64,000 bases of DNA from Candidatus Latescibacterota bacterium (GCA_965207885.1 OZ242311.1:5280001-5344000), one strand, 5' to 3'. Shown: positions 43,148 through 61,420, numbered from the stretch's first letter. Translations and numbers: made by a program. The notes: a model not told the origin generated them from the letters alone.

Positions 43148-43969
43148 CTACTCCTCTGAGACATTCACATCCTCTTTGGGAAGCGCGTCCTCTGTACATA
43201 TCGAATCCAAGAATGGGTAAGATATGTGGTTTCGTTTTGCCTCGCGTCTTAAACGGAGTTGATAGAGTTCCTGCACACAACGCGCTTTTGTAGCTTCATC
43301 GAGCACAGCGAGGCAGTGTTGTTGAATATAGTACAGCGCATAGCCCGTTTCCACTTTTATGGGACCAATCACCTCACCTACCTCAGCGGCAAATAATAGG
43401 GACGCAACTTCAGCGGGCAAGTCTCGTCGGCTCTGGCGACCGAGATAACCACTTGCAGGGCGCGTGTGCTCATCGAGGGAATATTGACGCGCGAGGGTGT
43501 GAAAATCTCGCCCACCATCCTTGATCTGCATCGCAATCTCTTCGGCAATGTCCTGTTCATTGACCAGAATCCAGCATATTTCCCGACGTTCAGACGCCAG
43601 TTTCTGGCTTGCAAAATGCGTTTGAATCGCTTCAGTAGTGATTTGCGCTTTCAAACGCTCCTGGAGCATCTGATATTCAATTTCCCGTGCCATGTCAGTG
43701 AAGGTGATATTGCGTTGTGATAACCAGTTTTCCGTATCTTCAACACTTTCCAATCTGTTTTTGTACCGCCATTGGTCTATCCCCTTTTGCAGTTCATTTT
43801 GAGGAATTTTAATTTTTTCTCGTTGGGCGATTTGAAAGACCAGACCGCGTTGCGTAAAGAGCTCGTGCAAGCTGTCCTTGTTAGTCGCCCGCATTGATTT
43901 CACGATATGGGACAAGCGAATTTGTGTCTCGTTTATTTGAATGATGACGGGGTCAATTGAATTTGCCAT
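43148..43969 (-). CDS. PpiC-type peptidyl-prolyl isomerase associated with T1SS/bacteriocin export
   Basis: DFHTLARQYS, GYLG and GEVIGPI rotamase motifs. Starts 1 nt after the HlyD stop. Confidence 0.88.
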   Translation of the reverse strand: MANSIDPVIIQINETQIRLSHIVKSMRATNKDSLHELFTQRGLVFQIAQREKIKIPQNELQKGIDQWRYKNRLESVEDTENWLSQRNITFTDMAREIEYQMLQERLKAQITTEAIQTHFASQKLASERREICWILVNEQDIAEEIAMQIKDGGRDFHTLARQYSLDEHTRPASGYLGRQSRRDLPAEVASLLFAAEVGEVIGPIKVETGYALYYIQQHCLAVLDEATKARCVQELYQLRLRREAKRNHISYPFLDSICTEDALPKEDVNVSEE

Positions 43970-43970
43970 T

Positions 43971-45320
43971 TTATTTTTCAGCCTCTGGAGAAAGCGCGGC
44001 CAGGTCGCGCAATTGCCGCAGTGGATTGAGTGCGAGCATCAAAATGGACTGGCGGTCTGTTATGATTTCTGCCGCGCCCTTCATGCCAAACATAAATGCT
44101 TTTTCCTCGCCGTGTACAAGAATGGTCGTGTACTCCAGATCAATAATGCCTCTAAACACAGTTCCCGAACCGTCATCGCCCATTGCGTCAGGTGAAATCT
44201 GTCTCAAATAGCCGTGCTGGATGCCGTAGTCCTGAAATGGAAATGCTTCAAATTTGAGCTTTACCTTTTGTCCAGATGACAGCAGGCCCACGTCTTTATT
44301 TAATATCAGGGCTTCGGCTACAATCGGCGTCGAGGCCGGTGCAATAGTTACCAGTGTCTGGCCTTTATTGACCACTTGACCTGGTGTATTGACCAGAACT
44401 TGTGTGACGATTCCCGGTTCAGGTGCAAGAATTAGATCGATGTCTGCATCAACAGATCGATTAACCGTTTGTTTCGCTTGTTTGAGTCTGATTTCTGCAA
44501 TGTCATAAGCATTTTGGAAGTTTGCCCGAGTGCGTTCGAGTTCGAGTCGTTCTTCGAGAATTTGGCGTTTTAAGTCCTTTAGGGAAACCTCATAACGATT
44601 GATCTCTGCCATCCGCGCGGGCAGTTCTGCCAATGCGCTCAGATAGCGGACTTTGGCTTCATCGCGTGCCGCAAGGCTGATGAGTCTCTTTTCGTACAAT
44701 TTTTGGTTTTGTTCATATTGTTGTTTCAAATGTTCTACTTCTGCGGAACGGAATTGTATTTCGATCTCAAGGTCGGGGGGTTGAGACGTTTCTGTGTGTT
44801 TTCCAAGTGCTTCCCGGTAGGTCTGCATTGCTGTTTGCATGACGTGAACGCGATGCTCAAGCGCGGAGATGGTCTCTTTTGCCAAAATTCTTTTTTGCGG
44901 CAGGGTTTGTTGCAGATCAAATTCTGCTTTTTTGAATGCGATTTCTGCTTGTTCCAGTTCGCGGAACTCCTTGAGGGTTTCTTGCGAGCGGAGTCTGAAT
45001 AAGATCTGCCCTTCAGCAATCAGGTCCCCCGAATGGATAGCGATTTCCTGGATTTCGCCAGAACGCGGTGCCTGGATGTTCTGAACCTTTCCCAATGGGA
45101 CCAGACGAAATGGGGCTGTTGCGACAACATCGACCTGACCGTACCAGGCCCATGCTATGGAGATGGCAATAAAAAGCAGCAGAATATAAATAAGCGCGCG
45201 GCTGAAAAAAGGGTGTAATGATCCTAAAAACTCGATGGTGCTTTCGGCCAAATCCGTTTCGTTTTCAAGCGGTTTTTCGCGTGGTTCTATTGGCAATTTT
45301 TCAATTTGAGCTTCGGCCAT
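43971..45320 (-). CDS. HlyD family membrane fusion protein
   Basis: N-terminal TM, coiled coil, K.K.EAFPFQDYG...G...ISPDA and GM.G.AEI motifs. Confidence 0.93.
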   Translation of the reverse strand: MAEAQIEKLPIEPREKPLENETDLAESTIEFLGSLHPFFSRALIYILLLFIAISIAWAWYGQVDVVATAPFRLVPLGKVQNIQAPRSGEIQEIAIHSGDLIAEGQILFRLRSQETLKEFRELEQAEIAFKKAEFDLQQTLPQKRILAKETISALEHRVHVMQTAMQTYREALGKHTETSQPPDLEIEIQFRSAEVEHLKQQYEQNQKLYEKRLISLAARDEAKVRYLSALAELPARMAEINRYEVSLKDLKRQILEERLELERTRANFQNAYDIAEIRLKQAKQTVNRSVDADIDLILAPEPGIVTQVLVNTPGQVVNKGQTLVTIAPASTPIVAEALILNKDVGLLSSGQKVKLKFEAFPFQDYGIQHGYLRQISPDAMGDDGSGTVFRGIIDLEYTTILVHGEEKAFMFGMKGAAEIITDRQSILMLALNPLRQLRDLAALSPEAEK

Positions 45321-45358
45321 TGAAATTCCGTTTTTTGTAATGTGTTAGCACGCTCGCG

Positions 45359-48325
45359 TTACACGACCTGCAATTGTTGTCCCGATAGATTGCAATAAAG
45401 TCCTTGTTCTGCGATGAGTGTATCGTGCGTGCCCTGTTCAATAATGTTCCCGTCATCCAGTACAAGGATCAAATCCGCATCTTTTACTGTGCTCACCCGG
45501 TGGGCGATGATAAACGCGGTCTTACCTTCCAGCATGGTGTCTAACCCTTCCTGAATCGCTCGCTCGGACTCTGTATCCAGAGCATTGGTGGCCTCATCAA
45601 AGATGATAATTTTGGGGTCGCCATATAGTGCTCTGGCAATGGACAGGCGTTGTCGCTGACCACCGGAAAGTCCCACACCCTGTTCCCGAATTTTGGTTTC
45701 ATATCCCATTGGCAGGTCTTTGATAAAGTCGTGGGCATAAGCGAGTTTGGAAACTTCCATCAAACGATCCATATCGACATCTTTGACCCCTATGGCGATA
45801 TTTTCGGTGATGGTGGCATTGAACATGACGGGTTCTTGCAAAACCATCCCCACCTGACGCCGCAACCATCCAGGATCAAATTCGCGCAGGTCTGTGTCAT
45901 CGAGGGTAACGCACCCCTCTGTGGGATCAAATAGTCGGGGTATGAGTTTTACCAGTGTTGTCTTGCCCGCACCGCTACGGCCTACTATGGCTACTTTCTG
46001 GCCGGACGATATGTCCAAATTTATGTCGCTTAAGACATAAGGTTCTGTCGATCCCGATCCATACCGGAAGAATACATCGTCAAATGCGATGTGTCCTTCT
46101 ACGTCTGTGAGTTGAACCGAATAGTTGCGGTTGCGCGATGACTCGGTTCGCATATCGTAGATATCGTTTAATCGGTCCAGCCCCATTTTTGCCAGTTGAA
46201 TCTGCGGCCACAGGTTAATCAATCCCATAATTGGTCCCAATACCCTGCCACTGAGCATATTGAATGCGATTAGTTGACCGACAGATAAGTCGCCCTGAAT
46301 GACCAGGTTCGCGCCATACCAGAGCACGATGGTGCTGCCCAAAACATTGTTTAGCTGTCCAAAAGACCCAAATAGCATATTTGTTTTGATTGCAGTAAAA
46401 CCAATTTTTATTTCCTGGGTCAAGCGTTCTTCCCAGGACCATCGCGTGGATTTTTCGACTGCGAGGGTTTTTATGACTTCAATGCCGCGTAGAGAATCAA
46501 TGAGTAAGGATGACCATTCTGAGCGGGCGAGAAAAGAGCGCTGGTTGATGGACTTGAGGATTGGGGTGTAGATTAAGGTCAGGATAATGCTAAACGGTAT
46601 GAATGCCAGAACATAGAGTGTCAAAGTGGTGTGGTAATAGAACATCAAGCCCAGATAGACAAAGATCATGATTGCATCAAGGACGGCTGAAATAGCCGTT
46701 TCTGTCAACAAGCTCCTCAAGTATTGGCTCTCTCGAAATCGCGTCATGATTTCACCGGTTCTGCGGAGGGCGAAAAACCGCATGGGCAGACGGAGGAGAT
46801 GGTGGTAGATGTGTGATAACATCGAGATGCTGATGCGCGCTCCCACATATCCAATCAGGTAGTTGCGCAGTGATGATGTGGCGATCCGAAATAAGGTGAT
46901 GATGATCATGCCTAAGAGCAGGAGATTGAGCAGACTATTATCCTGGTGAACGAGGACTTGATCGAGGATCATCTGGGTGAACAGAGGAGAAGCAAGGCCA
47001 AAGAGGTTCAGTACAAGGGAGGCGATCAGGATTTCGATGAGAATGCCGAGGTATGGACGGGCGAGTGGGAAAAACCGCCTGAACGATGATTTTCTTCCCC
47101 TGTATCTTGCGACCTTGTCGGTGTATTCAAGTATTAAGGCGAGTTTGGACCACTTGTCTTCAAATTCTTTGCGGGAGATTTTTCGGCGTCCAAGTGCAGG
47201 GTCGGCGATCCATGCGTATTTTGAACTGATGCGATACAGAACGACAAAGTGATAGCCTTCCCAGTGTGCGATAAGCGGCAGGTCTCTTTCTCCGATTTCA
47301 CTGTATCCAATCCGCACGCCGCGCGTTAAAAAGCCCAGGTTTTCAGCGGCTTCGGCAAGTGCGGATAGGGATGTGCCTTCCCGCGAGACATTGGCCATGT
47401 CTCGAAGTCGGTTTAATCCAATGGATTGTCCATAATATTGACAGATCATGCCGAGGCAGGCCGCGCCGCAATCGGTCTCATCGTGTTGCTTGATGTAGGG
47501 AAATGTGATGTAATTTCGCAGTTTTCGAGGGCTTTGATCAGAGATGCTATTTTCAGGCTCGATTTCTATTGTTTTAATTCGACCATTTTGCGGCACTGTC
47601 TCGCGCGGCTCTTCTTGTTCATTTTTCTCGAAGATCCGAATGAGTTGGGGAGCACTTTCAAGCACTCTGGCAAAGTCGCTGTGCGAAAGGGTGTAGAGCA
47701 CGACTTCTGTTTCTGTTTCAATAGTGATTTCATCACACTGCATGCCGCTAAAAAAGTCGCCCGGCTTTAACCTTTTGGAAGGCTGGTTCCCCTCTCTCAA
47801 CTGCAAGGTTCCGCGGCCAATGAGATAGAGTTTTTTTGCTTCTTCATCCTGCCATACTGCTTTTTCTCCTTCCGCAATAACCTTCCGCGCCAGACATTGG
47901 AAAAAGAGCTGCATAACCTCCTGGAGGTTTACGGTGTCCAGCGCTATGAATTTTGTGAAGTTTCGATAGGCGATGTCTCGCACTTGATCGAGCAGGTATG
48001 GAGTCAGTTCCCGATGCTCTGATACGAGGGCGTGAAAGTTGCCCTGAGAAATTTTCAGTACGATTGAGGATTCAACCGCTCGAACCGTTGCCCTGCGCGG
48101 TTTGCCCGTGAGCAATGCGCCTTCTCCGCAATGGTCGCCGGGAAAGAGATAACCGAGGGTCTGCATCTCATCATTGCTGTCTCTCGTTAAAACCCTGAGT
48201 TGCCCGGATACGACATAGTAAAAGCAATCGCCCCTGTCGCCTTCATAAAACAAAACCTCTCCGAGATTGACCTGCATTTCCTCTGCATGAGGTCTCAGAG
48301 AGGCATATAGATCGGTTCGTTTCAT
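45359..48325 (-). CDS. Peptidase C39-containing ABC exporter with N-terminal cNMP-binding domains
   Basis: QHDETDCGAACL (catalytic Cys), HWEGYHFVV, Walker A GRSGAGKT, LSGGQRQR and FDEAT motifs. Confidence 0.95.
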   Translation of the reverse strand: MKRTDLYASLRPHAEEMQVNLGEVLFYEGDRGDCFYYVVSGQLRVLTRDSNDEMQTLGYLFPGDHCGEGALLTGKPRRATVRAVESSIVLKISQGNFHALVSEHRELTPYLLDQVRDIAYRNFTKFIALDTVNLQEVMQLFFQCLARKVIAEGEKAVWQDEEAKKLYLIGRGTLQLREGNQPSKRLKPGDFFSGMQCDEITIETETEVVLYTLSHSDFARVLESAPQLIRIFEKNEQEEPRETVPQNGRIKTIEIEPENSISDQSPRKLRNYITFPYIKQHDETDCGAACLGMICQYYGQSIGLNRLRDMANVSREGTSLSALAEAAENLGFLTRGVRIGYSEIGERDLPLIAHWEGYHFVVLYRISSKYAWIADPALGRRKISRKEFEDKWSKLALILEYTDKVARYRGRKSSFRRFFPLARPYLGILIEILIASLVLNLFGLASPLFTQMILDQVLVHQDNSLLNLLLLGMIIITLFRIATSSLRNYLIGYVGARISISMLSHIYHHLLRLPMRFFALRRTGEIMTRFRESQYLRSLLTETAISAVLDAIMIFVYLGLMFYYHTTLTLYVLAFIPFSIILTLIYTPILKSINQRSFLARSEWSSLLIDSLRGIEVIKTLAVEKSTRWSWEERLTQEIKIGFTAIKTNMLFGSFGQLNNVLGSTIVLWYGANLVIQGDLSVGQLIAFNMLSGRVLGPIMGLINLWPQIQLAKMGLDRLNDIYDMRTESSRNRNYSVQLTDVEGHIAFDDVFFRYGSGSTEPYVLSDINLDISSGQKVAIVGRSGAGKTTLVKLIPRLFDPTEGCVTLDDTDLREFDPGWLRRQVGMVLQEPVMFNATITENIAIGVKDVDMDRLMEVSKLAYAHDFIKDLPMGYETKIREQGVGLSGGQRQRLSIARALYGDPKIIIFDEATNALDTESERAIQEGLDTMLEGKTAFIIAHRVSTVKDADLILVLDDGNIIEQGTHDTLIAEQGLYCNLSGQQLQVV

Positions 48326-48358
48326 GATGTTTTCCAGCCCCGCTTTGCATAAAGTCTT

Positions 48359-48931
48359 TTACTCAGCTTCAAATACACGCCACTTTGAGTCGGGTGACTT
48401 CTTGAGCACTGTCTTGTCCGAAAGCAGAACCTGAAATATGTATCGACTGCCATTAACAGGCATCTGTGCATGGACTGAATAGCAACGCCGGCACGCCTTT
48501 ATCTTGATCTCTGTGTCACAGGGGATACAGTCCATGTGTCCTGAAGGGTTTCTTTTACATCGCAGGCACTCAATTTGTTCGATCAGGTTTTTGTTCCGTT
48601 CCTGGTATTTCACCAACTCGCCAGGAGCTATCATGGCACCTATATACTCCAGACCTGCAGAGTGACACTCTTTGCAGTACCATCCTGAAAAGTCGCCGTA
48701 CACGAGTTGACAATTACCACATATGGAAATGTACTCCACATCTGGCTCGCGATTCTCAAAACGCCTGAAGTATGCCAGAATATCGGCCTTATCATCATCG
48801 GACAATTTCTCAAATGGCTGTAGTTTGGATCCACACTCCTGGCAGGGGTCGCCAAAGAAACGTTTTGCCCAGAGACCACCAATTCCCAGGACTACAATAA
48901 TGAGAATGGTCAAAATAATAAACGCTTCCAC
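48359..48931 (-). CDS. Membrane-anchored Cys-rich protein with six CxxC pairs
   Basis: N-terminal TM, then CQEC, CGNC, CKEC, CLRC, CIPC and CRRC. GAGGA RBS with a GTG start. Confidence 0.7.
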   Translation of the reverse strand: MEAFIILTILIIVVLGIGGLWAKRFFGDPCQECGSKLQPFEKLSDDDKADILAYFRRFENREPDVEYISICGNCQLVYGDFSGWYCKECHSAGLEYIGAMIAPGELVKYQERNKNLIEQIECLRCKRNPSGHMDCIPCDTEIKIKACRRCYSVHAQMPVNGSRYIFQVLLSDKTVLKKSPDSKWRVFEAE

Positions 48932-49074
48932 AGTAGGGTCCTCTTGTCAGTGTTTATTGCTATGTCCTCTGCCCTACGGGTTTTCGTCTCTATCCATCTG
49001 TGTCCATCTGCATAAAACGCTCAAATGGACCGCTGCGCAATTATACACCGTTCACTCGCGTTTTTTTTGCGGAT

Positions 49075-50430
49075 CTATTCAATCAATTCTTTGACATCGT
49101 GAATGCGAATATCAACCTCAGGCAAGTGTTTATTCAGAATGTCTATGATGTAATCTTTCGGACCGAGAAAAAGCATGATCATATTCTCCTGTACAAAGAA
49201 TTTTTCGAGAAAAGCTCGCACCTCAACATCGGTGACGGAATCATAACCGCCTTTGTGAGTTGGCGAATTATAGATGGCTTGATATACCTCATTGTCCAGT
49301 CTTCGCTGTAGTGTCAACAACTCATGAGCATAGATGACATTGCGACTTTCACGCAACTCTTTTATTGCCGCCCAAAAGCGGGGATTGTCGGGCAGTTTTC
49401 GGATGAAATCGGACATTTTTACGATCAACGCTTCACTATTATGGAATTGAGGATCAGCAAAAATTTCAAGAAACATGATTCCCTCTGATGATGACAAATT
49501 GCAAGAAGGGCCATAGACCAATCCCAACTCTTCTCTGAAATGTGTATTGAGCAAGCCTTGAGTACCATATCGTACAAGTATCCTGGATATCATTTTTGGA
49601 ATATAGCTCTCTTCTTTTTCTAAATTTCCACAAGGTATCAGCCAAAAACAAAAAATACTTTTTACGCCTGAAAAATTAAATACAAAAGCTGTAGGACCGA
49701 TATTATAATCCGTTATTGGAAATTTCGGTGAATGCACAAACCCCCCTGCCTGTCCGTGTTGCAGCAAGTGGGTCTCTCGCTTTTCTATAACTGGACGAAG
49801 TAGTTTCGAGATCTCAGTAGAATCGAGGTCTGAAATCACCTTAAAAAACACCACGTCTGTTTTCAGCAGTTGATCATAATATTGCGTGATGTCCTTAAGC
49901 GAGAGATTTTTGAGCGTTTTTAAAGATATATGTTTCTTTATGCCTTTTGTTTTTGAAAGTGCAAAATTTTTTATAAACGTATAATCCCGCAGGTAAGCCC
50001 GGTAATCAGCAACCAGCCCTTTTTTTATATCTTGTAATTCAGACTCAGAAAACTCGAGATTATATATGAAATCGCGGACTATTTTTATAGATCTGCCACT
50101 ATTCTCAGATAAGCCATAAATGGATATTGTTCGGTATAGGGTATTAGTAGTGATATTCAGACGAGTACCTAATGCTTCTAATTGATCCATATACCCCTGC
50201 TTTTGGACAGCCTTCCAGATCAATTGTGAGACTACCATTGCAAGCCCAGCTTGATATGGCTGTTCCGCACCGCTCCCAGCTCCGAGGAAGATAATCTCAA
50301 TTTTGGTCAATGGCGCGCGTTTGTCCTGGCGATAAAAAATTTGGTGGTTAGGTATCTCTGCAAAAGCGGGCAGGATACTAACCACGCAGCACAGAGCAAA
50401 ATTAAGTATCACTTTCAGAAACATATTCAT
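49075..50430 (-). CDS. M16 peptidase-like subunit lacking the catalytic motif
   Basis: Signal peptide, AGS..E...AGLA and REELGLVY motifs. No HxxEH. Confidence 0.75.
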   Translation of the reverse strand: MNMFLKVILNFALCCVVSILPAFAEIPNHQIFYRQDKRAPLTKIEIIFLGAGSGAEQPYQAGLAMVVSQLIWKAVQKQGYMDQLEALGTRLNITTNTLYRTISIYGLSENSGRSIKIVRDFIYNLEFSESELQDIKKGLVADYRAYLRDYTFIKNFALSKTKGIKKHISLKTLKNLSLKDITQYYDQLLKTDVVFFKVISDLDSTEISKLLRPVIEKRETHLLQHGQAGGFVHSPKFPITDYNIGPTAFVFNFSGVKSIFCFWLIPCGNLEKEESYIPKMISRILVRYGTQGLLNTHFREELGLVYGPSCNLSSSEGIMFLEIFADPQFHNSEALIVKMSDFIRKLPDNPRFWAAIKELRESRNVIYAHELLTLQRRLDNEVYQAIYNSPTHKGGYDSVTDVEVRAFLEKFFVQENMIMLFLGPKDYIIDILNKHLPEVDIRIHDVKELIE

Positions 50431-50549
50431 TGGTCTTTCGAGAGAACTTCCTACGTAAATTTTTTATCTATAAACAGTGTGACAAGACCACCCAGCAGCG
50501 TTAGAAAATCTACGCCTGTCAATATCATAATTCCATAGTGTAAGGATGT

Positions 50550-51887
50550 TCACGGAGGTGACATTTTCTTTTTTGACACCGTTAGAGAATAGGTTATGGA
50601 ATTGTCATCCGTCATGTACTGGTCTATAATGCGAGGGATGTCTTCTCTGCGAATGGATTTGAGGTCTTTTATCAATTTGGGATATAGGAGGGGATCGTTG
50701 GCGTGGGCAAATGCCTGTCCAAATGAATAAGCCATGTTTGAACGGTTGTAAAATGCGGAATACATTGTGGTCAACTGCTGGTTTCGAGCCGTATTGAGTT
50801 CTGCGTCGGAGATGGATTTCAGATTCTCCAACTCTTTGCTGATCATGTTCTGGAACCTATTTCTGGACGTATCATAGGGTAGTTCTGCATAGCAATGCAT
50901 CAAGCTAAATCCTTTATAGCTGCTGAGTTCCACCTGAAAAACACTTGCGAGCTTAGAACCAACGACGGTAGATCGCAAAGAATTTGAGGACTTATCCAAG
51001 ATATAGTCCAGAATAAGCAGGCCAGCGTAGTCGCGATGTCCTAAATTGGGTGTGTACCAGCCCTTTCTGAATATAGTAACAATGAGATTTTTTAAAGTGT
51101 GTTTTAATCTTTTTCCGAGCACTTCACGGTTCGGATATTGGGGAGAATACGGTTTGCTCGGTATTTGCTCATTGCCATAAGCTTCGTCCAATTTTTTCAA
51201 GACCTGGTCAACATCCACATCGCCGATCACGACAATCAGTCTCTTTTGACGGCGCAGAAAATTCTCATAATACGCTTTCAAATCATCAGATTCGAGTTGT
51301 GTAATAAAAGCCTCAGTACCAAGGTCATTAAAATTCTTTTTTTTGTAAATTAAAGAAAAAAAAGAATTCTTGTGTCTAAGTTTTAAACTTGATAATCTAT
51401 GACTTCTTTCCGTCAGTACGATTTTCTTTTCTTTTTTTATAATTTCCTCATTGATCACTGTGTTGTAATATCTTTCCGAATCTATCTTAACCGCGAGATC
51501 AAACTTATCCTTCGGAAATTTTAGTATAAAGCATGTAAAATGATAATCAGTAAAGGCTTTTTGTTCTCCTTCATTATCTGCGATAATTTGATTGAGTTTC
51601 CCCGGCGCATAGCTGCCAATGCCCGCTATGACATGCTCTAAAAAATGTATCCGTCCTTGTTGACCTTCCTCTTCATCTGCCGAGCCAGCATCATAAAAGG
51701 TATGGTATTCAAAGGTTGGGATTGTTCGATCTACAACAATAACAGCGTCGAGGTTGGGATTGATGGTATAATATTGCGCGACGAGTTCTTCAGATAATGT
51801 GGCTGTGCCAACAAGATCGTAGGCAACGCAAATGCCCGTTGGCAAGACGCATACAAGGAATGAGGTGAGTGCGTAAGTTTTCATCAT
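50550..51887 (-). CDS. M16 (insulinase/pitrilysin) metallopeptidase, catalytic subunit
   Basis: AGSADE..G..G..HFLEH, AFT and EKKIVLTE motifs, signal-peptide-like N-terminus. Confidence 0.85.
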   Translation of the reverse strand: MMKTYALTSFLVCVLPTGICVAYDLVGTATLSEELVAQYYTINPNLDAVIVVDRTIPTFEYHTFYDAGSADEEEGQQGRIHFLEHVIAGIGSYAPGKLNQIIADNEGEQKAFTDYHFTCFILKFPKDKFDLAVKIDSERYYNTVINEEIIKKEKKIVLTERSHRLSSLKLRHKNSFFSLIYKKKNFNDLGTEAFITQLESDDLKAYYENFLRRQKRLIVVIGDVDVDQVLKKLDEAYGNEQIPSKPYSPQYPNREVLGKRLKHTLKNLIVTIFRKGWYTPNLGHRDYAGLLILDYILDKSSNSLRSTVVGSKLASVFQVELSSYKGFSLMHCYAELPYDTSRNRFQNMISKELENLKSISDAELNTARNQQLTTMYSAFYNRSNMAYSFGQAFAHANDPLLYPKLIKDLKSIRREDIPRIIDQYMTDDNSITYSLTVSKKKMSPP

Positions 51888-51969
51888 GTTTGATACTCAG
51901 CAAAGTTGGGAATGGCTGCCTCGCCTATATATATCTGGATACATTCTTGCACTGCACAGTATAAAATCT

Positions 51970-52002
51970 GAAGGTTCTTCCAGCAGGCCTGAAAGAACCT
52001 TC
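51970..52002 (-). terminator. Stem-loop or terminator downstream of the GG-leader gene
   Basis: GAAGGTTCTTCCAG...CTGAAAGAACCTTC inverted repeat followed by a short T run on the minus strand. Confidence 0.55.
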
Positions 52003-52059
52003 TTAGTCATGTAATCCCTGAGAAACCGGACTATGTAGTGTTAAACGTGTACAATGGTA

Positions 52060-52656: not shown

Positions 52657-52667
52657 AATACTATCTC

Positions 52668-53538: not shown

Positions 53539-53610
53539 ATCATACTCCTTGGTTTAGGGCGTATGCTGCAACTAAAATACATACTTTACGACTTTTCAGA
53601 CACTACCTAG
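52668..53610 (-). mobile_element. IS5-family insertion sequence (IS427-like, two ORFs)
   Basis: Perfect terminal inverted repeats GTAGTGTCTGAAAAGT / ACTTTTCAGACACTAC, each flanked by CTAG (target duplication CTAG or TA). Coordinates include the flanks. Confidence 0.93.
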
Positions 53611-53642
53611 TAAGGGTTATTACTTGTGGATTGATTAAAATC

Positions 53643-54586
53643 TCACTTAAGAAATTTTGCTGTCTCGCCATCTTTACACGTACGATCTCTGTCGTGAAAA
53701 AATAGAAAGTTGCGAAAAAACGTATTGACGATTGTCATATAACAGGCATTCTGTTTTCTTTTTTGAGCTTCTGGTGGAAGATCCGTGAACTCCTGGATGC
53801 GCTCAGGTGTCACCCCATGGATGTCGCGAATGGTATTGAACAGACCAATCAGATCTGTTTCACAGCAGTTATTCGCTTTAGCCAGCACGCTCAAATACAC
53901 ATCATCAACATGCGATAATGCCTTTGCAATTCGGGTGCGAGTCTCACTGACAGACTGAACATCCGAAAGCCTATCAGGCGCATCCCAACACGGTGTCACG
54001 GATTTGATCTTACGCAGCACGGCCAGATGGTGGTCTTCGCGGATAATCTCCACAGCAAAACTACTGGGATAGACGGACAGCCAGTTCTCGACAATTTGCT
54101 TCTCATAAGACCTTCTGAAATCGTCCAGAATGACCAGACCACCAATCTTGATCTGGTCATAAACCTGGTAAAGGCATGCCTCCCGACCTCGCAAGGTATA
54201 GACTGGCGGACCATCAATAACCACGCAATCTATCTCTTCCTTCCAAAACACCCCATCTTCATAAGTCAAAAATTCCGTATCTCCATAAGATTCAAGGGTA
54301 ATTGGACGATGTTTGATCGATAGATTGCGCTTATCCCAGAATGTTTGCATCAGACTCAGGGTCTCTGCAAAATTCCGCCAGTCGCCTTCTATAGACAGAA
54401 CCTCGGTTCCAAAAACGCCATCGCCAGACGGATAGAACTCGGACCACTTCCAAATTCGAGAATTCTTTCTACTGGAGACATCTGAAGAAGCGTGGTTGCG
54501 ATTCTCTCAAACGCTGTCTCACCAATGCTCCAGCCCGCGTCCAGATTAAGCCGATCCGGTATTTTGAGGTCGGAAATTTTATGCAT
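53643..54586 (-). pseudogene. Class I SAM-dependent methyltransferase, frameshifted near 54405-54415
   Basis: ILEFGSGPSS in ORF 54389-54586. The other frame continues TEVLSIEGD...VIDGPP...GG.VILDD..R..E. One base is missing. Confidence 0.8.
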
Positions 54587-54589
54587 GCC

Positions 54590-56032
54590 TTACTTCTTTA
54601 CTTCAGATACCACTTCCAGATCATATCGTCGCTGCAACAAAGACGCATCTTCCTCTGCAATCTCCATACACATCTCCATCGCCAATTCATAGCGATAGCG
54701 CGTCTGTTCACAAGCAACAGGGTTGGGATACATCGGATCACCCGTTGTCGTCCGCGCCTCCCAAAGACATCCGCCACCACACAGGTTGCGCGCCCAGCAC
54801 GTCTTGCACTCAGGACGATTATTCACATTGAACTGCGCGTCAAAATGCTGCTGCTTTTCGCGGTCAATACCCGCAAACACATCACCCATCTTAAACTCGG
54901 GCGCATCGGCCAAACTCGAACAAAAATAAATCGACCCATCTGCTGCAATAGCCAGATACTGCTTGCCACCCAGGCATCCATGACAGGATTTCTGGCGCGT
55001 CAACAGTTTCTGAATCCGCGGATCAAACTCTTCACTCTCTTCACCATTTAGAATGGCTTTGAGCGCACGCCTACTCCGCTTGTAAATTTGCTGCTTCAAC
55101 GCAGGTATGTGTTCTTCCCGAATCGCATAAGGCGCATCCGGTGAAACAACAGCCGGACCAACAAGCGCGTTATCAGTACCCAGAGAACGCAACGCATCGG
55201 CAATCTGATCCTCGTCCATATCATACGCTGTCATAACAGCCTGCAAATACACCCTCTCGGGAACCTCAGCAGTCAATTTCTGTACATTCTTTGCCACAAC
55301 ATCATAAGTGCCAGAACCATTGTGAAACTTGCGAATGCGGTCCTGTGTCTGACGCCCACCATCCAGACTGACCTTAATTTGAAACTTTTCATCAACCAAA
55401 AACTGCTTCATCTCGTCGGTCAACAACGTGCCATTGGTCACAATGCCAAAACCAACCTGCACACCCAATCGCGCTGATAGGGATTTGGCAAATGGGACAA
55501 GCTCCTGCATCAATGGAAAATTCAGAAGCGGCTCTCCGCCAAAAAAATCAATCTGGCATCGTCCCAATACCTGAGCCTCGGCAACAATCCAGCGTATGGC
55601 TTGCTCGGCAACATCTATTTGCATCAGCATCGCCTTACCGCCATAATCTCCACCGTGGGCAAAGCAATAAGCACACTGAATATTGCAAGTATGGGAAACG
55701 TGCAAAGACACCTGCAACCGATCTGTCTGCGATACGCCACAGGCTGCCACCCCTTCTGTCGTCGGCACACTGGATACCAGAGGCAAAGCACCATCCGAAA
55801 TCAAACCCACCTGGGACAGTTCCTCAATGGCCTCGACAATTTCTTCTGCCTCGTATTGATCAGCCAACCTCTGAACAACCTGCGAAACAGACAAACCCTC
55901 GCAACACTCTAAAATCGCCTCGAAAAGAGTATCCAATTTAAAAAATAGACCCGTCTCAATCTGATAGACAATCGGTTGTTCTTGCTCTTCTGTTTGAAAA
56001 AGATGCATTTCACATTTCTGAATGCACAGCAT
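54590..56032 (-). CDS. Radical SAM/SPASM peptide maturase with a probable N-terminal RRE (CteB/PapB/QhpD-like)
   Basis: CNIQCAYC, FFGGEPLLN, TNGTLL and SLDG motifs. SPASM C..C.GG...DG.IY.C...C..CWARNLCGGGC...C. GAGGAG RBS 8 nt before the ATG at 56032. Confidence 0.93.
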   Translation of the reverse strand: MLCIQKCEMHLFQTEEQEQPIVYQIETGLFFKLDTLFEAILECCEGLSVSQVVQRLADQYEAEEIVEAIEELSQVGLISDGALPLVSSVPTTEGVAACGVSQTDRLQVSLHVSHTCNIQCAYCFAHGGDYGGKAMLMQIDVAEQAIRWIVAEAQVLGRCQIDFFGGEPLLNFPLMQELVPFAKSLSARLGVQVGFGIVTNGTLLTDEMKQFLVDEKFQIKVSLDGGRQTQDRIRKFHNGSGTYDVVAKNVQKLTAEVPERVYLQAVMTAYDMDEDQIADALRSLGTDNALVGPAVVSPDAPYAIREEHIPALKQQIYKRSRRALKAILNGEESEEFDPRIQKLLTRQKSCHGCLGGKQYLAIAADGSIYFCSSLADAPEFKMGDVFAGIDREKQQHFDAQFNVNNRPECKTCWARNLCGGGCLWEARTTTGDPMYPNPVACEQTRYRYELAMEMCMEIAEEDASLLQRRYDLEVVSEVKK

Positions 56033-56056
56033 AGCACGCACTCCTCAAAACCCAAA

Positions 56057-56245
56057 TCACTTAGCCTGATCATCAACCTGTTCGAAATCGTCCCAATCGT
56101 CATCATCGGGAAAGGGCAGAGGGGGAACGCCAAAATCACCGGAGGGACAGAGCACTTCAAAACTATGCACAGTTTGGTACATAAGGATGCTACCTTCTTG
56201 ATCTATCGTTCCATTGATCAAAGTCAACTTACGTCGCGTTGTCAT
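56057..56245 (-). CDS. Putative RiPP precursor peptide, 62 aa
   Basis: AAGGAG RBS. First gene after the sigma54 promoter and directly upstream of the rSAM gene. Single Cys in CPSGD and an acidic tail PDDDDWDDFEQVDD. Confidence 0.75.
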   Translation of the reverse strand: MTTRRKLTLINGTIDQEGSILMYQTVHSFEVLCPSGDFGVPPLPFPDDDDWDDFEQVDDQAK

Positions 56246-56291
56246 GTTACTCTCCTTGATAATGCAAAAATCTTAGATGCCGTTACTATAT

Positions 56292-56307
56292 TGCAAGATC
56301 CGTGCCT
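56292..56307 (-). promoter_or_regulatory. Sigma54 promoter of the RiPP operon
   Basis: Minus strand reads AGGCAC-GGATC-TTGCA (GG-N10-GC), about 46 nt upstream of the precursor ATG and next to a bEBP gene. Confidence 0.8.
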
Positions 56308-56411
56308 AAAATCGCCTCAGCACAAAAAAAAGCACTTGAAAATGCTCAAGTGCTTGAAAAACAAAGAGATAAAATTTAAAAATTATTTGTATTGTAAATG
56401 CGGCATCCAAA

Positions 56412-56533
56412 TATATGTGTATCTAATAGATACGCATATAACCGTTCATTTAGGCAAAATATGTATAAATGATTGATTAATATAAAAATAAATTAAAGTG
56501 CATCTAAATGATACATTGTCACAAAATGATACA
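56412..56533. promoter_or_regulatory. Candidate upstream activator sites (TGTATC-N5-GATACA, three copies)
   Basis: TGTATC-TAATA-GATACG at 56418, TGCATC-TAAAT-GATACA at 56499 and TGTCAC-AAAAT-GATACA at 56517, 110-230 bp upstream of the -24 box. Confidence 0.6.
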
Positions 56534-56545
56534 TTCGTTCAATAT

Positions 56546-59500
56546 CTATCTCAACCCCAAACGATTCATCTTTCTATACAAGCTGGCACGCACCAACCCC
56601 AGTTCTTCGGCCGTACGCTTAATATTACCCTCGTATTTTTCGAGCGCATCCATAATCAACCGTCTCTCATACTCCTGCATACGATCTTGTAAACGCCCTC
56701 CTGCTTGCGTGTGGGCATCCGCCCGTGCAGACAAGTGATATTCGACAAAGATACCCGACACAGCGTGAATGACAGCTTCTGAAAACAAATCAGGCGTAAT
56801 ATCACCCTCTTCTTCTGACAATGCTACCGCACGTCGAATTTCATGCTCCAACTCGCGCACATTACCAGGCCAGTTGTAACTTGTGAGTGCCCTGATTGCA
56901 CCCACTGTCAACCCTCCAACCGACTTTCTTGCCTCTTCTTTTGCTCGAATGAGCAGATGTCCAGCCAATAATGGCACATCTTCAAGGTGTTCTCGTAAAG
57001 GTGGCATATCGATCTGAATCCCGTGCAACCGGTAATACAAATCTTCGCGGAAAGAACCGTTTTCAACTTCTTTTTTTAAGTCTCGATTGGTCGCTGCAAT
57101 AATGCGTACATCCACTTCGCGATCCTCTGTTTCTCCCACACGCCGAATCTCACCTTCTTGCAACACCCGCAACAAACTTCTTTGCAACTGCGGCGGAGCA
57201 TCGGCGATTTCATCGAGAAGAACCGTGCCCCCATCAGCCGCTTCAAAAATCCCCTTATGATCTTCACTCGCGCCAGTAAACGCGCCTTTTTTGTGCCCAA
57301 ACAACTCACCCTGCAACAACTCTGGTGATAGTGTAGCACAATTTTGTGACAAAAATCGTTGATCTTTGCGCCTGCTATTGTAGTGTATGGCACGCGCAGC
57401 CAACTCTTTGCCCGTACCTGTTTCGCCCTGCACAAGTACGGGAATATCACTTTGTGAAGCGCGTTCGATAAGCTGGTAAACCACCTGCATAGCATCACTC
57501 TGCCCGACCAGATCATCAAGCCGGTACCGCCTTTCGACCTGTTGCTGAAAATATTGTGCTTTCTCTTCCAGTTGTTCATACATCCTCGCATTGACCAGCG
57601 CCAGCCCCACCAGATTCGCAAAAGCCTGTAAAAACGTCTGATCTGCTTCAGAAAATGCGTTGTCAATACCGCGATGATCCACATATAGCGCACCGATAAC
57701 ACCTTCCTTAACATGAAAAAGAGGCACACACAATACAGACCGAATGTGGTAGTCTATCACGCTCTGATACCGATTTAATCTTTCGTCTGTCTGGGCATCC
57801 ATGCTCAAAACGGGTTCATTGGTCTCAATAACGCGGCGAATAATACCCCGACTCAGTTCTTCTGCATCATCTGCTTCTACATTGTAGTAGCGCACGGCAT
57901 CAACCACAAAGCCTTTTGGGGTCTCATTTTTAATCGCAATAAGCACCCGCTCTGCTGGATAGACAGCCAACAAATTACCCAGAGTTCGATCCAATAACAC
58001 CTTGACATCGCGCTCTGTGGTCAATTCGTGGCTCACTTCGTAAAGCAAGCTCAAACGATCGACAGACAATGTATCGACTGAAATCCCAGAAATAGATGCG
58101 GCACCTGCTTGCGCGATAGCAGGCAAGTCCTCCTTGCGAGAAGATTTATCCAATTGATTTAATAAAATCCGTGTTTTCTCCAGAAAATAAGACATCTCCA
58201 TCTCTTCAAACGCCTGTTTTGCCGCTTCAAGATGTACTTGCGCTTTTGGTACATCATCGCGCTCGAGATAAAACTCCCCTGCTATCAACAGCGCACGCGC
58301 CCAGTGATCGCCTTTAGATTCTCTTCGGCATTCAATCGCCTGCTCAAAAGCCTCTTCAGCCTCAGCTATCCGCCCTGCATGAGCAAAAGCCGCACCAATA
58401 CCACAATACACCAAGGGCAATATGCCCGTGAACATACCCGATGTTTGTTGCGTACCTTCACTGGCTTTTTCTGCCCATTCAAATGCTGTTTCTGTATCTC
58501 CCATTCTCGCAGCAACCGTTGCCGCAATCGCATAAGCGCGATAGATATAATCTCTTCGCGATATTTGCAAAAACCCCTCCACCGAGGTCTCGGCATATTC
58601 CAATGCCTCGGCAAAATCACCGCGTTCCAGTGCCAATTCTCCCAGATAAAGGAAATTCACTGCCTCCCCATACACAAGTCCTTGCTTCCTCCACTCACCA
58701 ATGACCTCATAGCAAACGGCTTCTGTACGGGTGAGATCTCCCAGATAAAAATAAACCCTTTGAAGCGAATTAAGTGCCCCAATGCGATGATGTTCAAATC
58801 CAAGCTGTTGAGATGTTTTTACAGCCACTTCTAGATATTCTTTGGCTGTTTCAAATCGAAAGTCCACCAATGCAGCTTGACCTTCTCGAACTTGTATAAA
58901 AGCGTCTTTCTGCGGATCTATCAACACACGACGTTTCTCTATTTCCAGACGCATATACTCAAGTGCTTCTTTGTGCCGTCCAGATACATCGCACAAATAA
59001 GCCAAACTGCCCAATGCTTGAACTTCTCCGTCGAGATCATCCAGTTCACGATAAAGTCGCAATGCCTCCAGCATATATTCTTTTGCAATTTCTCCATGTT
59101 GAAGTACGCTGTGAATACCACCTTCATTCCACAAAATACGCGCTTTCAAATCTCTCCGGTCATCGGGCAATAACGCCTTTGCCTCGCCTAAAAGTTCCAA
59201 TGCTTTATTGTGTTGACCACAATTGCGCAACGTATCTGCATAATCGCACAAAAAGTCGATAGCATTTACTTGTGATTCAAAAACGCCATCCGCCTGCTGT
59301 ACAGCCTCAAACCGTCTCAATGCCTGGCGATAAGCGTGTTTTTCCAATGCTTTTTTGCCCGCCATGAGCGTATATTTCACAGCCTTATCTCGTTCTTCTG
59401 CCGCCGCAAAATGATTCGCCAATTCTTCTATCAATTCTTCTGCATCTTCCGAATCTTCCAGAGCATTGCCAATTTCTCGATGCAACAACCGCCGCCGCAC

Positions 59501-61420
59501 ATCTTGCATGCGGTCGTAAATTGCACGCCGACACAACTCCTGTGAAAACCGATATCGATCTTCAGCCTCTCCACAAGCCTCCAAAAGCCCTTCTGCAATA
59601 AGATAGTCCAGCACATCTAACAGTTCTAACTCATCACCGCGCCAAACTGCGGCCAATAGTTCAAAAGAAAAATCACTCAGAAAAACACAGGCGTATTCCA
59701 GCACCCGACGTTGCACAGCAGGCAGAGTAGCTACGCGCCTGTACAAAACCTCTAAAATGCCATCAGACAACAGGGTTTCGGGAAATTCTCCCCACTGCCA
59801 ATCGCCGGACACATTCTGCCAAACCACATCGGCATTGACCAGTGTCCTCATTGCCTCTAAGACAAACAGGGGTTGTCCACCCGTTTCTCTGAATAGGGTT
59901 TGCAAGGCATCAGAAGGTATGGACCGCTCCCCCAACATCGATGCCGCTAAATATCCCACCTCTTCTTGTTGTAAATACTCCAACTGAATCTGAGTCGCCT
60001 CAGCAAGTTCATTGCTGTGTATAAAATTCTCAATTTCCTCTGAAAGCGGTTCCAGGTTAGACCATCGACAAGTCAGGCATAACAAAAACGGACACGGTTC
60101 TGGATCGCGCAACACATACTGCAAAAATTCCAGAATCAATTCATCAAGCCATTGAATATCTTCCAAACTCAATACAATGGGCTGTTTCTGTCGCAGACGC
60201 TTTAATAACTGCGACCAATGCTCCATAATAGAAAACTTGTCCGTCTCTAATGAATCGGGCACTCTCCCCACCAAATCCGTCGTCTTTACCTGCTGAAAAG
60301 CATCAATTAACGCACCGTATATTTGTCCGCCCTCTTCTCGTCCTGCACCTTTCAAACACAGAAAATCATGGATCAAAGCATCGCCCAAGAGTTCTTCAAT
60401 CAGTCTCGTTTTACCCACACCAGACTCACCCGAGATCAGAACTACGCGCTGTTTGCCAGCCTGTACATCCTGCAACATCGCACCCAGTATCTTCATTTCA
60501 GATTCCCGCCCGACAAATTGTGGGCGCACAACTTTTCTATGCACATCGCGCTGCTCGTCCTCCAGCAGCACAAGTTCCGATGGTGCTACATTATTTAAGG
60601 CTTGCACCAACTCCCCTGCCGATTGATAACGATCAACACGATCCTTTGCCAGCAACCTCAGCACAATTTGTTTCATCTGTTCGGGAACAGCGATATTGAC
60701 TTCGTCTATTGGTAGCGGCATCTTTCGAATATGCTTCAGAATAACTGATATGGGATTTTGTCCAGAAAAGGGCGATGCGCCCGTGAGCATCTCGTATAAA
60801 ATCACGCCCAATGAGTACAAATCTGACCGATGATCCACCCACAACCCTTTACCCTGCTCTGGCGACATATATTCTGCTGTACCAATCGTTGCACCCGTCT
60901 GAGTAATGGAAGCACCGTGCAAATGCCTGAATTTCGCCAGCCCCAGATCCAGAATCGTGGTCTCAATCCCCTCTTCTGTTTCCAAAACCATAATATTGGA
61001 TGGCTTGAGATCGCGATGCACCGCACCCTGAGCGTGGACATAAGCCAACCCCTCGGCAATTTGTTGTATCAAATCAAAAAAGTGAGACGCCCGAAATTGC
61101 TCTAACAGTACACGATCAGCAATTATCTTTTCCAATGTCTTTCCGGGCAAATATTCCATTGTAAAATAGGGGCGATCTTCGGCAAAGCCCCAAGTATATG
61201 TGCGCACCAGGCGCGGGTGCTGAAATCTGTTCAACACTTGAAATTCTCTGTGAAAACGGCGGTACACAGCCTTCTGATCCACCATGGTATTCAAGATTTT
61301 GAGCGCGCACTCCTGGCCTTGCTCCAGGTCTAACACCCGATAGACTTCGCCCATGCCCCCGGTTCCCAGGTGCGCCTGGATTTGGTATTTGTTGTCGAGA
61401 ATGGTGCCGATTGCAAACAT
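56546..61420 (-). CDS. Ser/Thr kinase-AAA ATPase-TPR-GAF-sigma54 activator-Fis HTH fusion
   Basis: GTGGMG, HRDLKPSN, DLGLAK, YMSPEQ; FVGRESE and GESGVGKT; GAF SVLCVPL; GETGTGKE, GAFTGA, FREDLYYRL and WPGNVRELE; C-terminal HTH. Confidence 0.93.
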   Translation of the reverse strand: MFAIGTILDNKYQIQAHLGTGGMGEVYRVLDLEQGQECALKILNTMVDQKAVYRRFHREFQVLNRFQHPRLVRTYTWGFAEDRPYFTMEYLPGKTLEKIIADRVLLEQFRASHFFDLIQQIAEGLAYVHAQGAVHRDLKPSNIMVLETEEGIETTILDLGLAKFRHLHGASITQTGATIGTAEYMSPEQGKGLWVDHRSDLYSLGVILYEMLTGASPFSGQNPISVILKHIRKMPLPIDEVNIAVPEQMKQIVLRLLAKDRVDRYQSAGELVQALNNVAPSELVLLEDEQRDVHRKVVRPQFVGRESEMKILGAMLQDVQAGKQRVVLISGESGVGKTRLIEELLGDALIHDFLCLKGAGREEGGQIYGALIDAFQQVKTTDLVGRVPDSLETDKFSIMEHWSQLLKRLRQKQPIVLSLEDIQWLDELILEFLQYVLRDPEPCPFLLCLTCRWSNLEPLSEEIENFIHSNELAEATQIQLEYLQQEEVGYLAASMLGERSIPSDALQTLFRETGGQPLFVLEAMRTLVNADVVWQNVSGDWQWGEFPETLLSDGILEVLYRRVATLPAVQRRVLEYACVFLSDFSFELLAAVWRGDELELLDVLDYLIAEGLLEACGEAEDRYRFSQELCRRAIYDRMQDVRRRLLHREIGNALEDSEDAEELIEELANHFAAAEERDKAVKYTLMAGKKALEKHAYRQALRRFEAVQQADGVFESQVNAIDFLCDYADTLRNCGQHNKALELLGEAKALLPDDRRDLKARILWNEGGIHSVLQHGEIAKEYMLEALRLYRELDDLDGEVQALGSLAYLCDVSGRHKEALEYMRLEIEKRRVLIDPQKDAFIQVREGQAALVDFRFETAKEYLEVAVKTSQQLGFEHHRIGALNSLQRVYFYLGDLTRTEAVCYEVIGEWRKQGLVYGEAVNFLYLGELALERGDFAEALEYAETSVEGFLQISRRDYIYRAYAIAATVAARMGDTETAFEWAEKASEGTQQTSGMFTGILPLVYCGIGAAFAHAGRIAEAEEAFEQAIECRRESKGDHWARALLIAGEFYLERDDVPKAQVHLEAAKQAFEEMEMSYFLEKTRILLNQLDKSSRKEDLPAIAQAGAASISGISVDTLSVDRLSLLYEVSHELTTERDVKVLLDRTLGNLLAVYPAERVLIAIKNETPKGFVVDAVRYYNVEADDAEELSRGIIRRVIETNEPVLSMDAQTDERLNRYQSVIDYHIRSVLCVPLFHVKEGVIGALYVDHRGIDNAFSEADQTFLQAFANLVGLALVNARMYEQLEEKAQYFQQQVERRYRLDDLVGQSDAMQVVYQLIERASQSDIPVLVQGETGTGKELAARAIHYNSRRKDQRFLSQNCATLSPELLQGELFGHKKGAFTGASEDHKGIFEAADGGTVLLDEIADAPPQLQRSLLRVLQEGEIRRVGETEDREVDVRIIAATNRDLKKEVENGSFREDLYYRLHGIQIDMPPLREHLEDVPLLAGHLLIRAKEEARKSVGGLTVGAIRALTSYNWPGNVRELEHEIRRAVALSEEEGDITPDLFSEAVIHAVSGIFVEYHLSARADAHTQAGGRLQDRMQEYERRLIMDALEKYEGNIKRTAEELGLVRASLYRKMNRLGLR

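Follow-up and report, generated by a model that had tools for sequence, protein, structure and literature searches.

Among described peptide maturases, CteB of the CteA/CteB (thermocellin) system, of the SCIFF type (TIGR03974; structure 5wgg), makes a Cys-Thr thioether, and the chemistry of the QhpD/QhpC (TIGR03906) and PapB/freyrasin (NF047865) systems yields Cys-to-Asp/Glu thioethers. For peptidase-containing ATP-binding cassette (ABC) transporters (PCATs), cargo with a double-glycine (GG) leader is the rule, while the subtilosin cluster offers, within a peptide gene cluster, an M16 peptidase pair, AlbE/AlbF, of which one member has the HxxEH motif and the other does not. We analyzed positions 43148-61420 of a 64,000-nucleotide (nt) stretch of DNA, referred to below as the window, from a Candidatus Latescibacterota bacterium (GCA_965207885.1 OZ242311.1:5280001-5344000). 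This run of genes combines elements that resemble all of these systems, and the original prediction, made from the window alone, had taken it for one self-contained radical S-adenosylmethionine (rSAM) peptide pathway with two candidate precursors, a peptide of 62 amino acids (aa) and a protein of 198 aa (p198). As an explanation of the whole, we consider it probable that the run instead consists of two separate gene modules that were brought into tandem by recombination. Module A (54590-61420) comprises a regulator, a sigma-54 promoter, a peptide of about 60 aa and a CteB-like rSAM/SPASM enzyme with a RiPP recognition element (RRE; RiPP, a peptide made on the ribosome and modified after translation). 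Module B (43148-52656) comprises a hyperacidic GG-leader cargo, an M16 pair, a protein with six CxxC pairs, an ABC exporter with cyclic nucleotide monophosphate (cNMP)-binding and C39 domains, an HlyD adaptor and a peptidyl-prolyl isomerase (PPIase).

Module A has in common with CteA/CteB the combination of RRE, rSAM domain and full SPASM domain, as well as a leader-bearing small Cys peptide encoded directly upstream. Unlike SCIFF, however, the precursor has one conserved Cys rather than six and matches no NCBIfam precursor model, control lies with a giant kinase/STAND sigma-54 activator, and the host belongs to the Latescibacterota and not to the Clostridia. QhpD and PapB provide the second and fifth best NCBIfam models of the enzyme and, in line with the Asp/Glu acceptors of their substrates, the peptide considered here has an Asp-rich tail, although no Qhp subunit genes are found nearby and the peptide contains no repeated CxxxD motifs. 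The exporter of module B shares its cNMP-binding, C39 and ABC exporter parts with HetC of Nostoc and other PCATs but has two cNMP domains and adjacent HlyD, PPIase, M16 and CxxC genes. As opposed to AlbE/AlbF, the M16 proteins both have signal-like N-termini and travel with the exporter module rather than with the rSAM gene.

HetC has been shown to need its cNMP domain, which binds ppGpp, and its cargo is unknown (PMC10986499), whereas cargo genes encoding hyperacidic proteins of 150-200 aa are visible here; module B supplies, for a HetC-like cNMP-gated PCAT, what HetC itself is missing. Neither the module A cassette nor the fused island is described in the literature that our search returned; its one relevant result was a listing of antiSMASH 'ranthipeptide' and 'RRE' clusters in sponge-associated Latescibacterota metagenome-assembled genomes (MAGs), in which ranthipeptide function is called unknown (PMC12993501). 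These clusters agree with module A in phylum, habitat and automatic class, and the main part of that report lists cluster types without describing a peptide family, regulator, copy number or exporter fusion. Module A is a real, undescribed ranthipeptide-like family, and what is new in the window is the fusion of this cassette to a cargo-bearing PCAT module, together with the damage that followed.

Distribution of the modules and their junction

The two modules were compared across a genus set of 21 genomes, in which module B was scored by its ABC gene at an identity of at least 79%. Module A was found at high identity in 16 of these genomes, mostly in two or three copies, and module B in 10. 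Both modules are present in 6 genomes, only module A in 10, only module B in 4 and neither in 1, meaning that the modules occur apart in 14 of the 21 genomes. Neither module needs the presence of the other. In the genome studied here, the regulator-peptide-rSAM unit exists in three copies (at 5.33, 1.39 and 1.89 Mb), and neither of the other two copies adjoins module B genes. Among 27 related rSAM loci, the regulator lies upstream in 25 (one of the remaining two is at a contig edge and the other has no regulator), and genes for M16, CxxC, HlyD or PPIase proteins are absent within 10 kb in all 27; a single locus has, 8 kb off, a cNMP-ABC gene of 50% identity. The claim that the island is self-contained is not supported by these counts. 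The related public records are labelled as Latescibacterota MAGs, a few as Gemmatimonadota, and the runs holding the stretch are mostly sponge metagenomes.

Two arrangements are seen downstream of the rSAM gene in related cassettes: some have a methyltransferase-like gene, behind which an AraC-type regulator is often encoded, and others a sigma-54 activator of 340 aa. These AraC genes were considered as a link to module B, and in the two loci checked (L018 and L024) no module B genes lie downstream. For module B, the gene order cargo, M16, M16, CxxC, ABC, HlyD, PPIase recurs in 10 of the 10 loci fetched, which were picked from DNA matches and therefore show this conservation by construction. 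In two of these loci (L096 and L099), the cargo gene lies behind a receiver-AraC regulator and a conserved stretch of leader DNA of about 220 nt, and a third (L100) has a truncated copy; module B normally sits behind such a regulator. No sigma-54 promoter was found before the p198-like genes of L096, L098 and L099, and L100 has one site 657 nt upstream.

Modules A and B are adjacent only in the window and in one relative, G012. In both, homology to native module B starts about 25 nt before the cargo start codon, where the 3' end of the methyltransferase gene adjoins it. Of this gene, only the first 28 and the last 94 nt are left in G012, which has the same junction without the insertion sequence (IS) seen here. 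The gene combination is a lineage-specific fusion. As the window and G012 have the same junction, a single recombination would seem to have set module B, without its own regulator, behind module A, with the methyltransferase gene being lost or broken later and the IS entering the joint in the present genome. Since module B was fused to the end of the methyltransferase gene only about 25 nt before its first start codon, it probably came under the module A promoter. How such modules are shuffled can be seen from the fusion, from the deletion that the relative carries and from the IS.

The IS, which the original prediction did not mention, is bounded by inverted repeats of 17 nt, with TA duplicated in a CTAG target, and its structure is that of a DUF4096 orfA, an A-run and a DDE orfB. 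It entered the 50-nt spacer between the methyltransferase stop codon and the p198 gene, 5 nt before the GGAG of the latter, a site that is empty in G012 (L097). In this genome, the element was found at 23 places by tblastn, with 100% identical protein among the 14 matches listed, and such identity of copies points to a recent burst; copies about 95% identical are present in three other genomes of the genus. Its read depth is about 20 times that of the flank in one run (X1), and no contig spanning the IS was found among the four runs examined, all of which are available as contigs. The IS probably weakens the coupling of the two modules in this genome.

The gene that the original prediction listed as a methyltransferase is present and is split by a 1-nt deletion (GGAA-CCGAG in the window as compared to GGAAGCCGAG in three relatives, namely a paralog and two orthologs), and the family assignment is weak. 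The intact paralog encodes 302 aa. Methyltransf_24 scores 18.8 bits against a cut-off of 26.3, with the whole profile (1-105) being covered, a GxGxG-like segment (ILEFGSGPSS) is present, and 25 of 30 hits of an Atlas feature search are clusters with PF13578, at scores of up to 0.97. The predicted fold is poor, with a mean predicted local distance difference test score (pLDDT) of 45.5. The family consists of 280 unnamed homologs, the best 120 of which are all at least 81% identical. At position 54406, run X1, which is probably the source sample, contains one contig with the base and one without, and this pair fits paralogs that have the base and the present copy that does not. A third methyltransferase-like gene of this genome (81% identical; G000:C1:215042-219015) has no peptide or rSAM gene beside it and lies behind a histidine-kinase-like open reading frame (ORF) and a 451-aa sigma-54 response regulator.

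Peptide, maturase and activator of module A

The 62-aa peptide consists of the leader RRKLTLINGTID, an invariant Cys33, V40-P41, P44-F45-P46 and an acidic DDDDWDDF tail. In an alignment of 21 sequences, M1, T3, K6, L7, L9, N11, G12, G18, I20, C33, V40, P41, P44, F45, P46, D48 and D52 are invariant, and these shared residues show the peptide to be a real gene. The aligned peptides are 60-78% identical to that of the window, as compared to 90-94% for their enzymes; Cys33 and the leader are kept in all 21, and the six residues between Cys33 and Val40 vary freely. A Cys-containing precursor is therefore encoded beside the enzyme and conserved with it, as in the broad rSAM-SPASM class, and the peptide is likely the substrate of the rSAM enzyme. 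Relatives with an rSAM enzyme about 50% identical have peptides with a similar leader (...NG..D..G.I) and one invariant Cys, followed by W-P-x-F-P-hydrophobic-L-P-P-P; they lack an acidic tail, and a second rSAM is added in these loci. In distant relatives of the cassette (L014, L015, L017, L039 and L041-L044; rSAM 42-52% identical), whose peptide is likewise devoid of the acidic tail, a second rSAM/SPASM gene, about 25% identical, directly follows the first. None of the NCBIfam families matches the 62-aa peptide, including the SCIFF precursor model (six Cys in forty-five residues), and a profile of the peptide retrieved only 13 proteins among 1.84 billion representatives, all from this lineage and several of them frame errors.

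The length of the peptide tail appears to follow the gene downstream of the enzyme. Among the window and L018-L038, the tail after ...F-D/E-Q comprises six residues in 9 of 10 peptides with a methyltransferase gene and two residues in 10 of 10 with the small activator, the extra four C-terminal residues (e.g., VDDQAK as opposed to AE) being seen in none of the latter; as these loci are kin, the correlation should be taken as a lead rather than as a test. In intact relatives, a Methyltransf_24-like protein is encoded after the rSAM and accompanies a peptide tail longer by four residues; its gene is frameshifted here. Outside the window and G012, no exporter is linked to the peptide in any of the cassettes examined.

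The rSAM enzyme carries LHVSHTCNIQCAYCFAHGGDYGG, the motif for which it had been likened to thioether-forming maturases, and our analysis bears out that likeness. SCIFF is the best of 73 NCBIfam families for this protein (266.7 bits), followed by QhpD (258.2), nif11 rSAM (252.6), an ScfB-related model (238.8) and PapB (229.0), with the anaerobic sulfatase maturase (anSME) model at 117. The best solved relative is CteB (5wgg; E 1.5e-61, residues 23-455), whereas the anSME structures match only core residues 115-252 (2e-16). Equivalog membership is not reached in any of these families, however, with SCIFF at 266.7 bits against a cut-off of 425, QhpD at 258.2 against 453 (and no Qhp subunit genes among the neighbours), PapB at 229 against 340 and anSME (TIGR03942) at 117 against 349. 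Because all scores fall under the cut-offs, the enzyme represents a new subfamily of the thioether-forming SCIFF/QhpD/PapB-type maturase clade. Grouping with the sulfatase maturases and absence of an RRE had been named as grounds for abandoning this assignment; neither was found, as Pfam places the RRE, a PqqD domain scoring 23.9 bits (cut-off 23.4), at residues 25-78, and related loci keep a small ORF of the 62-aa type upstream of the rSAM. The CX3CX2C motif (C119/C123/C126) and the seven-Cys SPASM motif (C356-X12-G-X4-C374, C412-X2-C415-X5-C421-X3-C425, C444) are both complete, and all of these Cys are invariant in our alignments (A1 and A3). Since relatives share the start MLCIQKC, the true start is likely the ATG at 56032, which would give 480 aa.

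A complex of the enzyme, the peptide, three clusters and SAM was also modelled. It scored 0.86 (0.86, 0.85 and 0.87 in separate runs), compared to 0.18 for the best of three controls; that mark is reached by 58 of 80 solved complexes and by 2 of 110 mismatched pairs. The pLDDT of the partner is at least 54, and at least 45% of the contacts agree between runs. The model places leader residues 5-14 on RRE residues 28-37 and 68-75, and peptide residues 39-46 (GVPPLPFP) in the barrel. By this model, the N-terminal RRE would dock the leader (RKLTLINGTI), after which, judging from the family, the enzyme would most likely join Cys33, via its sulfur, to a carbon in a residue that lies downstream, forming a thioether of the ranthipeptide type. 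Should this chemistry prove right, the peptides make up a precursor family new to ranthipeptide-type enzymes, marked by one Cys, a Pro-rich core and an acidic tail. The family occurs in several copies in uncultivated sponge symbionts, under an unusual switch that unites kinase, STAND and sigma-54 parts in one protein. The regulator, promoter, peptide and enzyme offer a compact testable set.

In the regulator, the kinase motifs (HRDLKPSN, DLG and SPE), the STAND Walker A (GESGVGKT) and the GAFTGA loop are all intact, and paralogs of 80-81% identity adjoin the two other cassettes of the genome. Downstream of the regulator end (56546), there follow two sets of TGTATC repeats, a hairpin, the promoter, an AAGGAG 7 nt before the peptide ATG and the ATG itself (56245). 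The sigma-54 promoter claimed by the original prediction is indeed present. We surveyed 27 intergenic regions, comprising that of the window, those of the other two copies in this genome and those of 24 related loci, and found a site that matches at least 10 of 12 consensus positions in 26; the exception is L044, which has no regulator gene. Across nine aligned cassettes, the site falls in the same alignment columns, the hairpin is conserved and the upstream half-sites are kept in all nine. In the first paralog of this genome (G000 copy 1; L011 5320-5655), all half-sites take the form TGCATCC...ATGCAC, the two arms of each palindrome being altered to match, and such divergence would insulate the paralogous activators of one genome from each other. 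The kinase/STAND/TPR/GAF sigma-54 activator may bind the upstream TGTATC repeats and fire the -24/-12 promoter, from which the transcript would encode the 62-aa precursor and the CteB-like rSAM/SPASM enzyme.

Cargo and exporter of module B

The 198-aa protein had been described as a GG-leader protein, which is confirmed by its relatives. Its leader ends in ARGG, and the cargo family as a whole has a leader of 38-42 residues ending in R/Q-G-G, kept in 9 of 9 members. The leader is 64-84% identical in eight relatives, and the cores are hypervariable, with 109-156 residues, a net charge of -29 to -51 and 2-8 Cys; that of p198 has 156 aa, a net charge of -38 and 6 Cys. The leader family corresponds to 12 unnamed clusters in 5.8 billion proteins and has no NCBIfam match. 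G012 contains four cargo-family genes in a row, and in L102 and L104 short acidic remnants are seen upstream of the M16 genes.

The exporter has a Pfam C39 domain (137.6 bits) together with ABC_membrane and ABC_tran, the domain set of a PCAT, although its score for TIGR01193 (512.6) is just below the cut-off of 523.85. Its motifs are DCGAAC at 285, HFVV at 359 and Walker A at 782, which give Cys286 and His359 for the C39 domain. The nearby double-glycine-leader cargo typical of PCATs is provided by the p198 gene, for which cleavage is predicted. These domains and motifs suggest that the hyperacidic protein would lose its conserved leader through C39 cleavage after GG and would be exported by the ABC exporter and HlyD adaptor, with the cNMP domains possibly gating export. 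p198 is the predicted cargo of this exporter, and nothing links it to the rSAM enzyme. Of the two precursors that the original prediction assigned to one pathway, the 62-aa peptide, which is kept with the rSAM gene, finds support, and p198, which belongs to a separately conserved exporter module, does not.

Among the partners, the HlyD adaptor scores 206.8 for TIGR01843 (cut-off 208.65) and the PPIase 69 bits for TIGR04500 (cut-off 180). The M16 proteins form a heterodimer-type pair, both having M16 and M16_C domains and only the 445-aa protein having HxxEH (HFLEH). A hydrophobic signal-like N-terminal segment was read by eye in both, and the pair may accordingly act outside the cytoplasm. The CxxC protein is present in 9 of the 10 module B loci fetched. 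It could not be placed in any family by Pfam, NCBIfam or Atlas (best Atlas score, 0.83), and its fold prediction is poor (mean pLDDT 44.7).

A second cNMP-C39 ABC/HlyD/PPIase set is found in this genome at 2.05 Mb (G000:C1:2052464-2058610; 57%, 49% and 38% identical), without M16 or CxxC genes. Two acidic ORFs directly upstream of it, of 75 and 126 aa, resemble GG-leader cargo. Several cores of the p198 family (L097 2141-7443; L098 5888-6439) share E/D-D-V/I/M-W-D-W-L-T followed by an acidic run, and the 62-aa peptide has DDDDWDDF (window 56060-56110). The resemblance of this core motif to eukaryotic acidic W-x-x-L motifs is only an impression. Motifs like the LC3-interacting region were counted 24 times in the p198-family cores as compared to 6.7 in shuffles, but the excess is driven by one motif common to paralogs, and the count was not taken as independent evidence.

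Competing readings and layout of the locus

Two observations weigh against the separation of the two modules and should be considered. ORFs with a p198-like leader are found only in module B loci of genomes with module A (the window and L096-L100) and were not found in L101-L104, from genomes without module A, or in L105, a restriction that could hint at a link between the modules. AraC-type regulators follow the module A methyltransferase gene in seven loci, and the modules may be coupled at a distance through them. Contigs from RNA runs, 90-95% alike, cover parts of the methyltransferase, IS and p198 regions and none lies on the rSAM gene, which shows neither expression nor silence. The restriction of the p198-like ORFs also favours the view that the run is one integrated pathway, in which the 62-aa peptide and the Cys-rich 198-aa protein would both be cross-linked by the rSAM enzyme, trimmed by the M16 pair and secreted through the C39 exporter, as do the co-orientation of the genes, the mere 50 nt between the methyltransferase and p198 genes before the IS entered, the persistence of the same fusion in a second species and the CxxC/NxxC-like Cys among Asp and Asn in the p198 core. 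We nonetheless find such a pathway improbable, as the modules are apart in most genomes of the genus and module B genes are missing within 10 kb of the related rSAM loci, the leaders of the two proteins are unrelated, the 62-aa peptide has no GG cleavage site, and the gene at the junction is damaged in both fused loci. Decay offers another explanation for the state of the window copy, with the frameshift and the IS marking a non-working cassette. The 1-nt deletion, the position of the IS 5 nt before the Shine-Dalgarno sequence of the p198 gene and the fact that G012, which shares the fusion, has lost its methyltransferase gene are all in keeping with a remnant, which we still regard as unlikely, since the 1624-aa regulator, the peptide, the rSAM gene and all seven module B ORFs are open with intact motifs, and half of the related cassettes naturally do without a methyltransferase gene. 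The deletion itself could have arisen as an error of assembly; the base is, however, also missing from a contig that was assembled independently from the likely source sample.

For the chemistry of module A, we lean slightly towards a Cys33 thioether, by analogy with the enzyme family. Here, too, there are points on the other side. Every NCBIfam match of the enzyme is far under its equivalog cut-off, such that the reaction could differ; Cys33 lies outside the confidently placed contacts of the complex model; and, as the CteB-CteA leader complex has already been solved, the pass of the model may mirror likeness to that complex. In addition, relatives at the 50% identity level have peptides that lack the acidic tail, which leaves no acceptor residue common to all peptides. 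A different radical reaction, for instance a cross-link of the C-C or C-O kind in which Trp, Phe or Pro takes part, or else an epimerisation, would agree with the missed cut-offs, with the invariant aromatic and Pro residues around the peptide core and with barrel contacts that fall on residues 39-46 and not on Cys33. Such a reaction seems to us rather unlikely, given that every one of the nearest families, like the enzyme of the nearest structure, forms Cys thioethers and that Cys is, besides the leader and Pro, the one residue common to both peptide families.

In each paralog, a STAND/TPR sigma-54 activator is matched by diverged half-sites of its own and by a peptide bearing a hypervariable six-residue loop after the Cys. 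One can, then, also picture module A not as antibiotic clusters but as a set of peptide circuits orthogonal to one another, in which the cross-linked peptide is the ligand of its own activator and one circuit captured a secretion module. We offer this as a speculation that is doubtful at present. Were it true, the export of possible host-directed proteins of a sponge symbiont would be under circuit control, some of these proteins carrying WDWL-type acidic-aromatic motifs like eukaryotic short linear motifs.

The features of the locus are collected in the table below. All ORFs that the original prediction listed exist and are co-oriented, its remark on AT-rich parts agrees with a GC content of 0.39-0.49 inside as compared to 0.52-0.54 in the flanks, and the terminator it placed after the PPIase gene corresponds to a terminator-like hairpin there.

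Table. Features of the run and its immediate surroundings, in window coordinates
Feature	Position	Strand	Basis
Module A regulator, 1624 aa	56546-61420	-	Pfam: Pkinase, AAA_16 (STAND NTPase), TPR/MalT-like TPR, GAF, Sigma54_activat, AAA lid, HTH_8 (Fis-type helix-turn-helix)
Candidate upstream activating sequence 1, repeats with TGTATC half-sites	56498-56533	-	Read from sequence; putative activator binding
Candidate upstream activating sequence 2, palindrome GCGTATC-N5-GATACAC	56417-56435	-	Read from sequence and alignment; putative binding
Terminator-like hairpin with T-run, 3' of regulator gene, just upstream of promoter	56330-56355	-	Folding, -13.5 kcal/mol, z -3.1
Sigma-54 promoter (-24/-12), aGGCACG-N4-TTGCA	56292-56307	-	Sequence; GGCACG-N4-TTGCA itself at 56306-56292
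Precursor peptide, 62 aa	56057-56245	-	ORF and alignment of 21 sequences
rSAM/SPASM maturase with N-terminal RRE, 483 aa as called	54590-56041	-	Pfam: PqqD (25-78), Radical_SAM, SPASM
Methyltransferase-like gene, broken by 1-nt deletion near 54406	53643-54586	-	Fragments 54389-54586 and 53643-54350
IS5-family IS, 941 bp	52669-53609	-	Pfam: orfA 53176-53538 (DUF4096), orfB 52668-53240 (DDE_Tnp_1)
GG-leader cargo protein, 198 aa	52060-52656	-	ORF; leader ends ...EMNMARGG
Hairpin with 14-bp stem between cargo and M16 genes	51970-52002	-	Folding, -22.2 kcal/mol, z -4.7
M16 peptidase, 445 aa, HFLEH at residue 81, signal-like N-terminus	50550-51887	-	Pfam: Peptidase_M16, M16_C
M16 partner without HxxEH, signal-like N-terminus	49075-50430	-	Pfam: Peptidase_M16, M16_C
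Membrane-anchored protein with six invariant CxxC pairs	48359-48931	-	Alignment
PCAT exporter, 988 aa: two cNMP-binding, C39, ABC membrane and ATPase domains	45359-48325	-	Pfam
HlyD-type periplasmic adaptor	43971-45320	-	Pfam: HlyD
Parvulin-type PPIase	43148-43969	-	Pfam: Rotamase
Terminator-like hairpin closing the run, 15-bp stem, 3' of PPIase gene	43056-43088	-	Folding, z -5.0

A scan for sigma-70 promoters gave 29 sites as compared to 32 expected and, hence, no signal. The genes flanking the run are those of a TRAP DctM protein and of a family III CoA-transferase.

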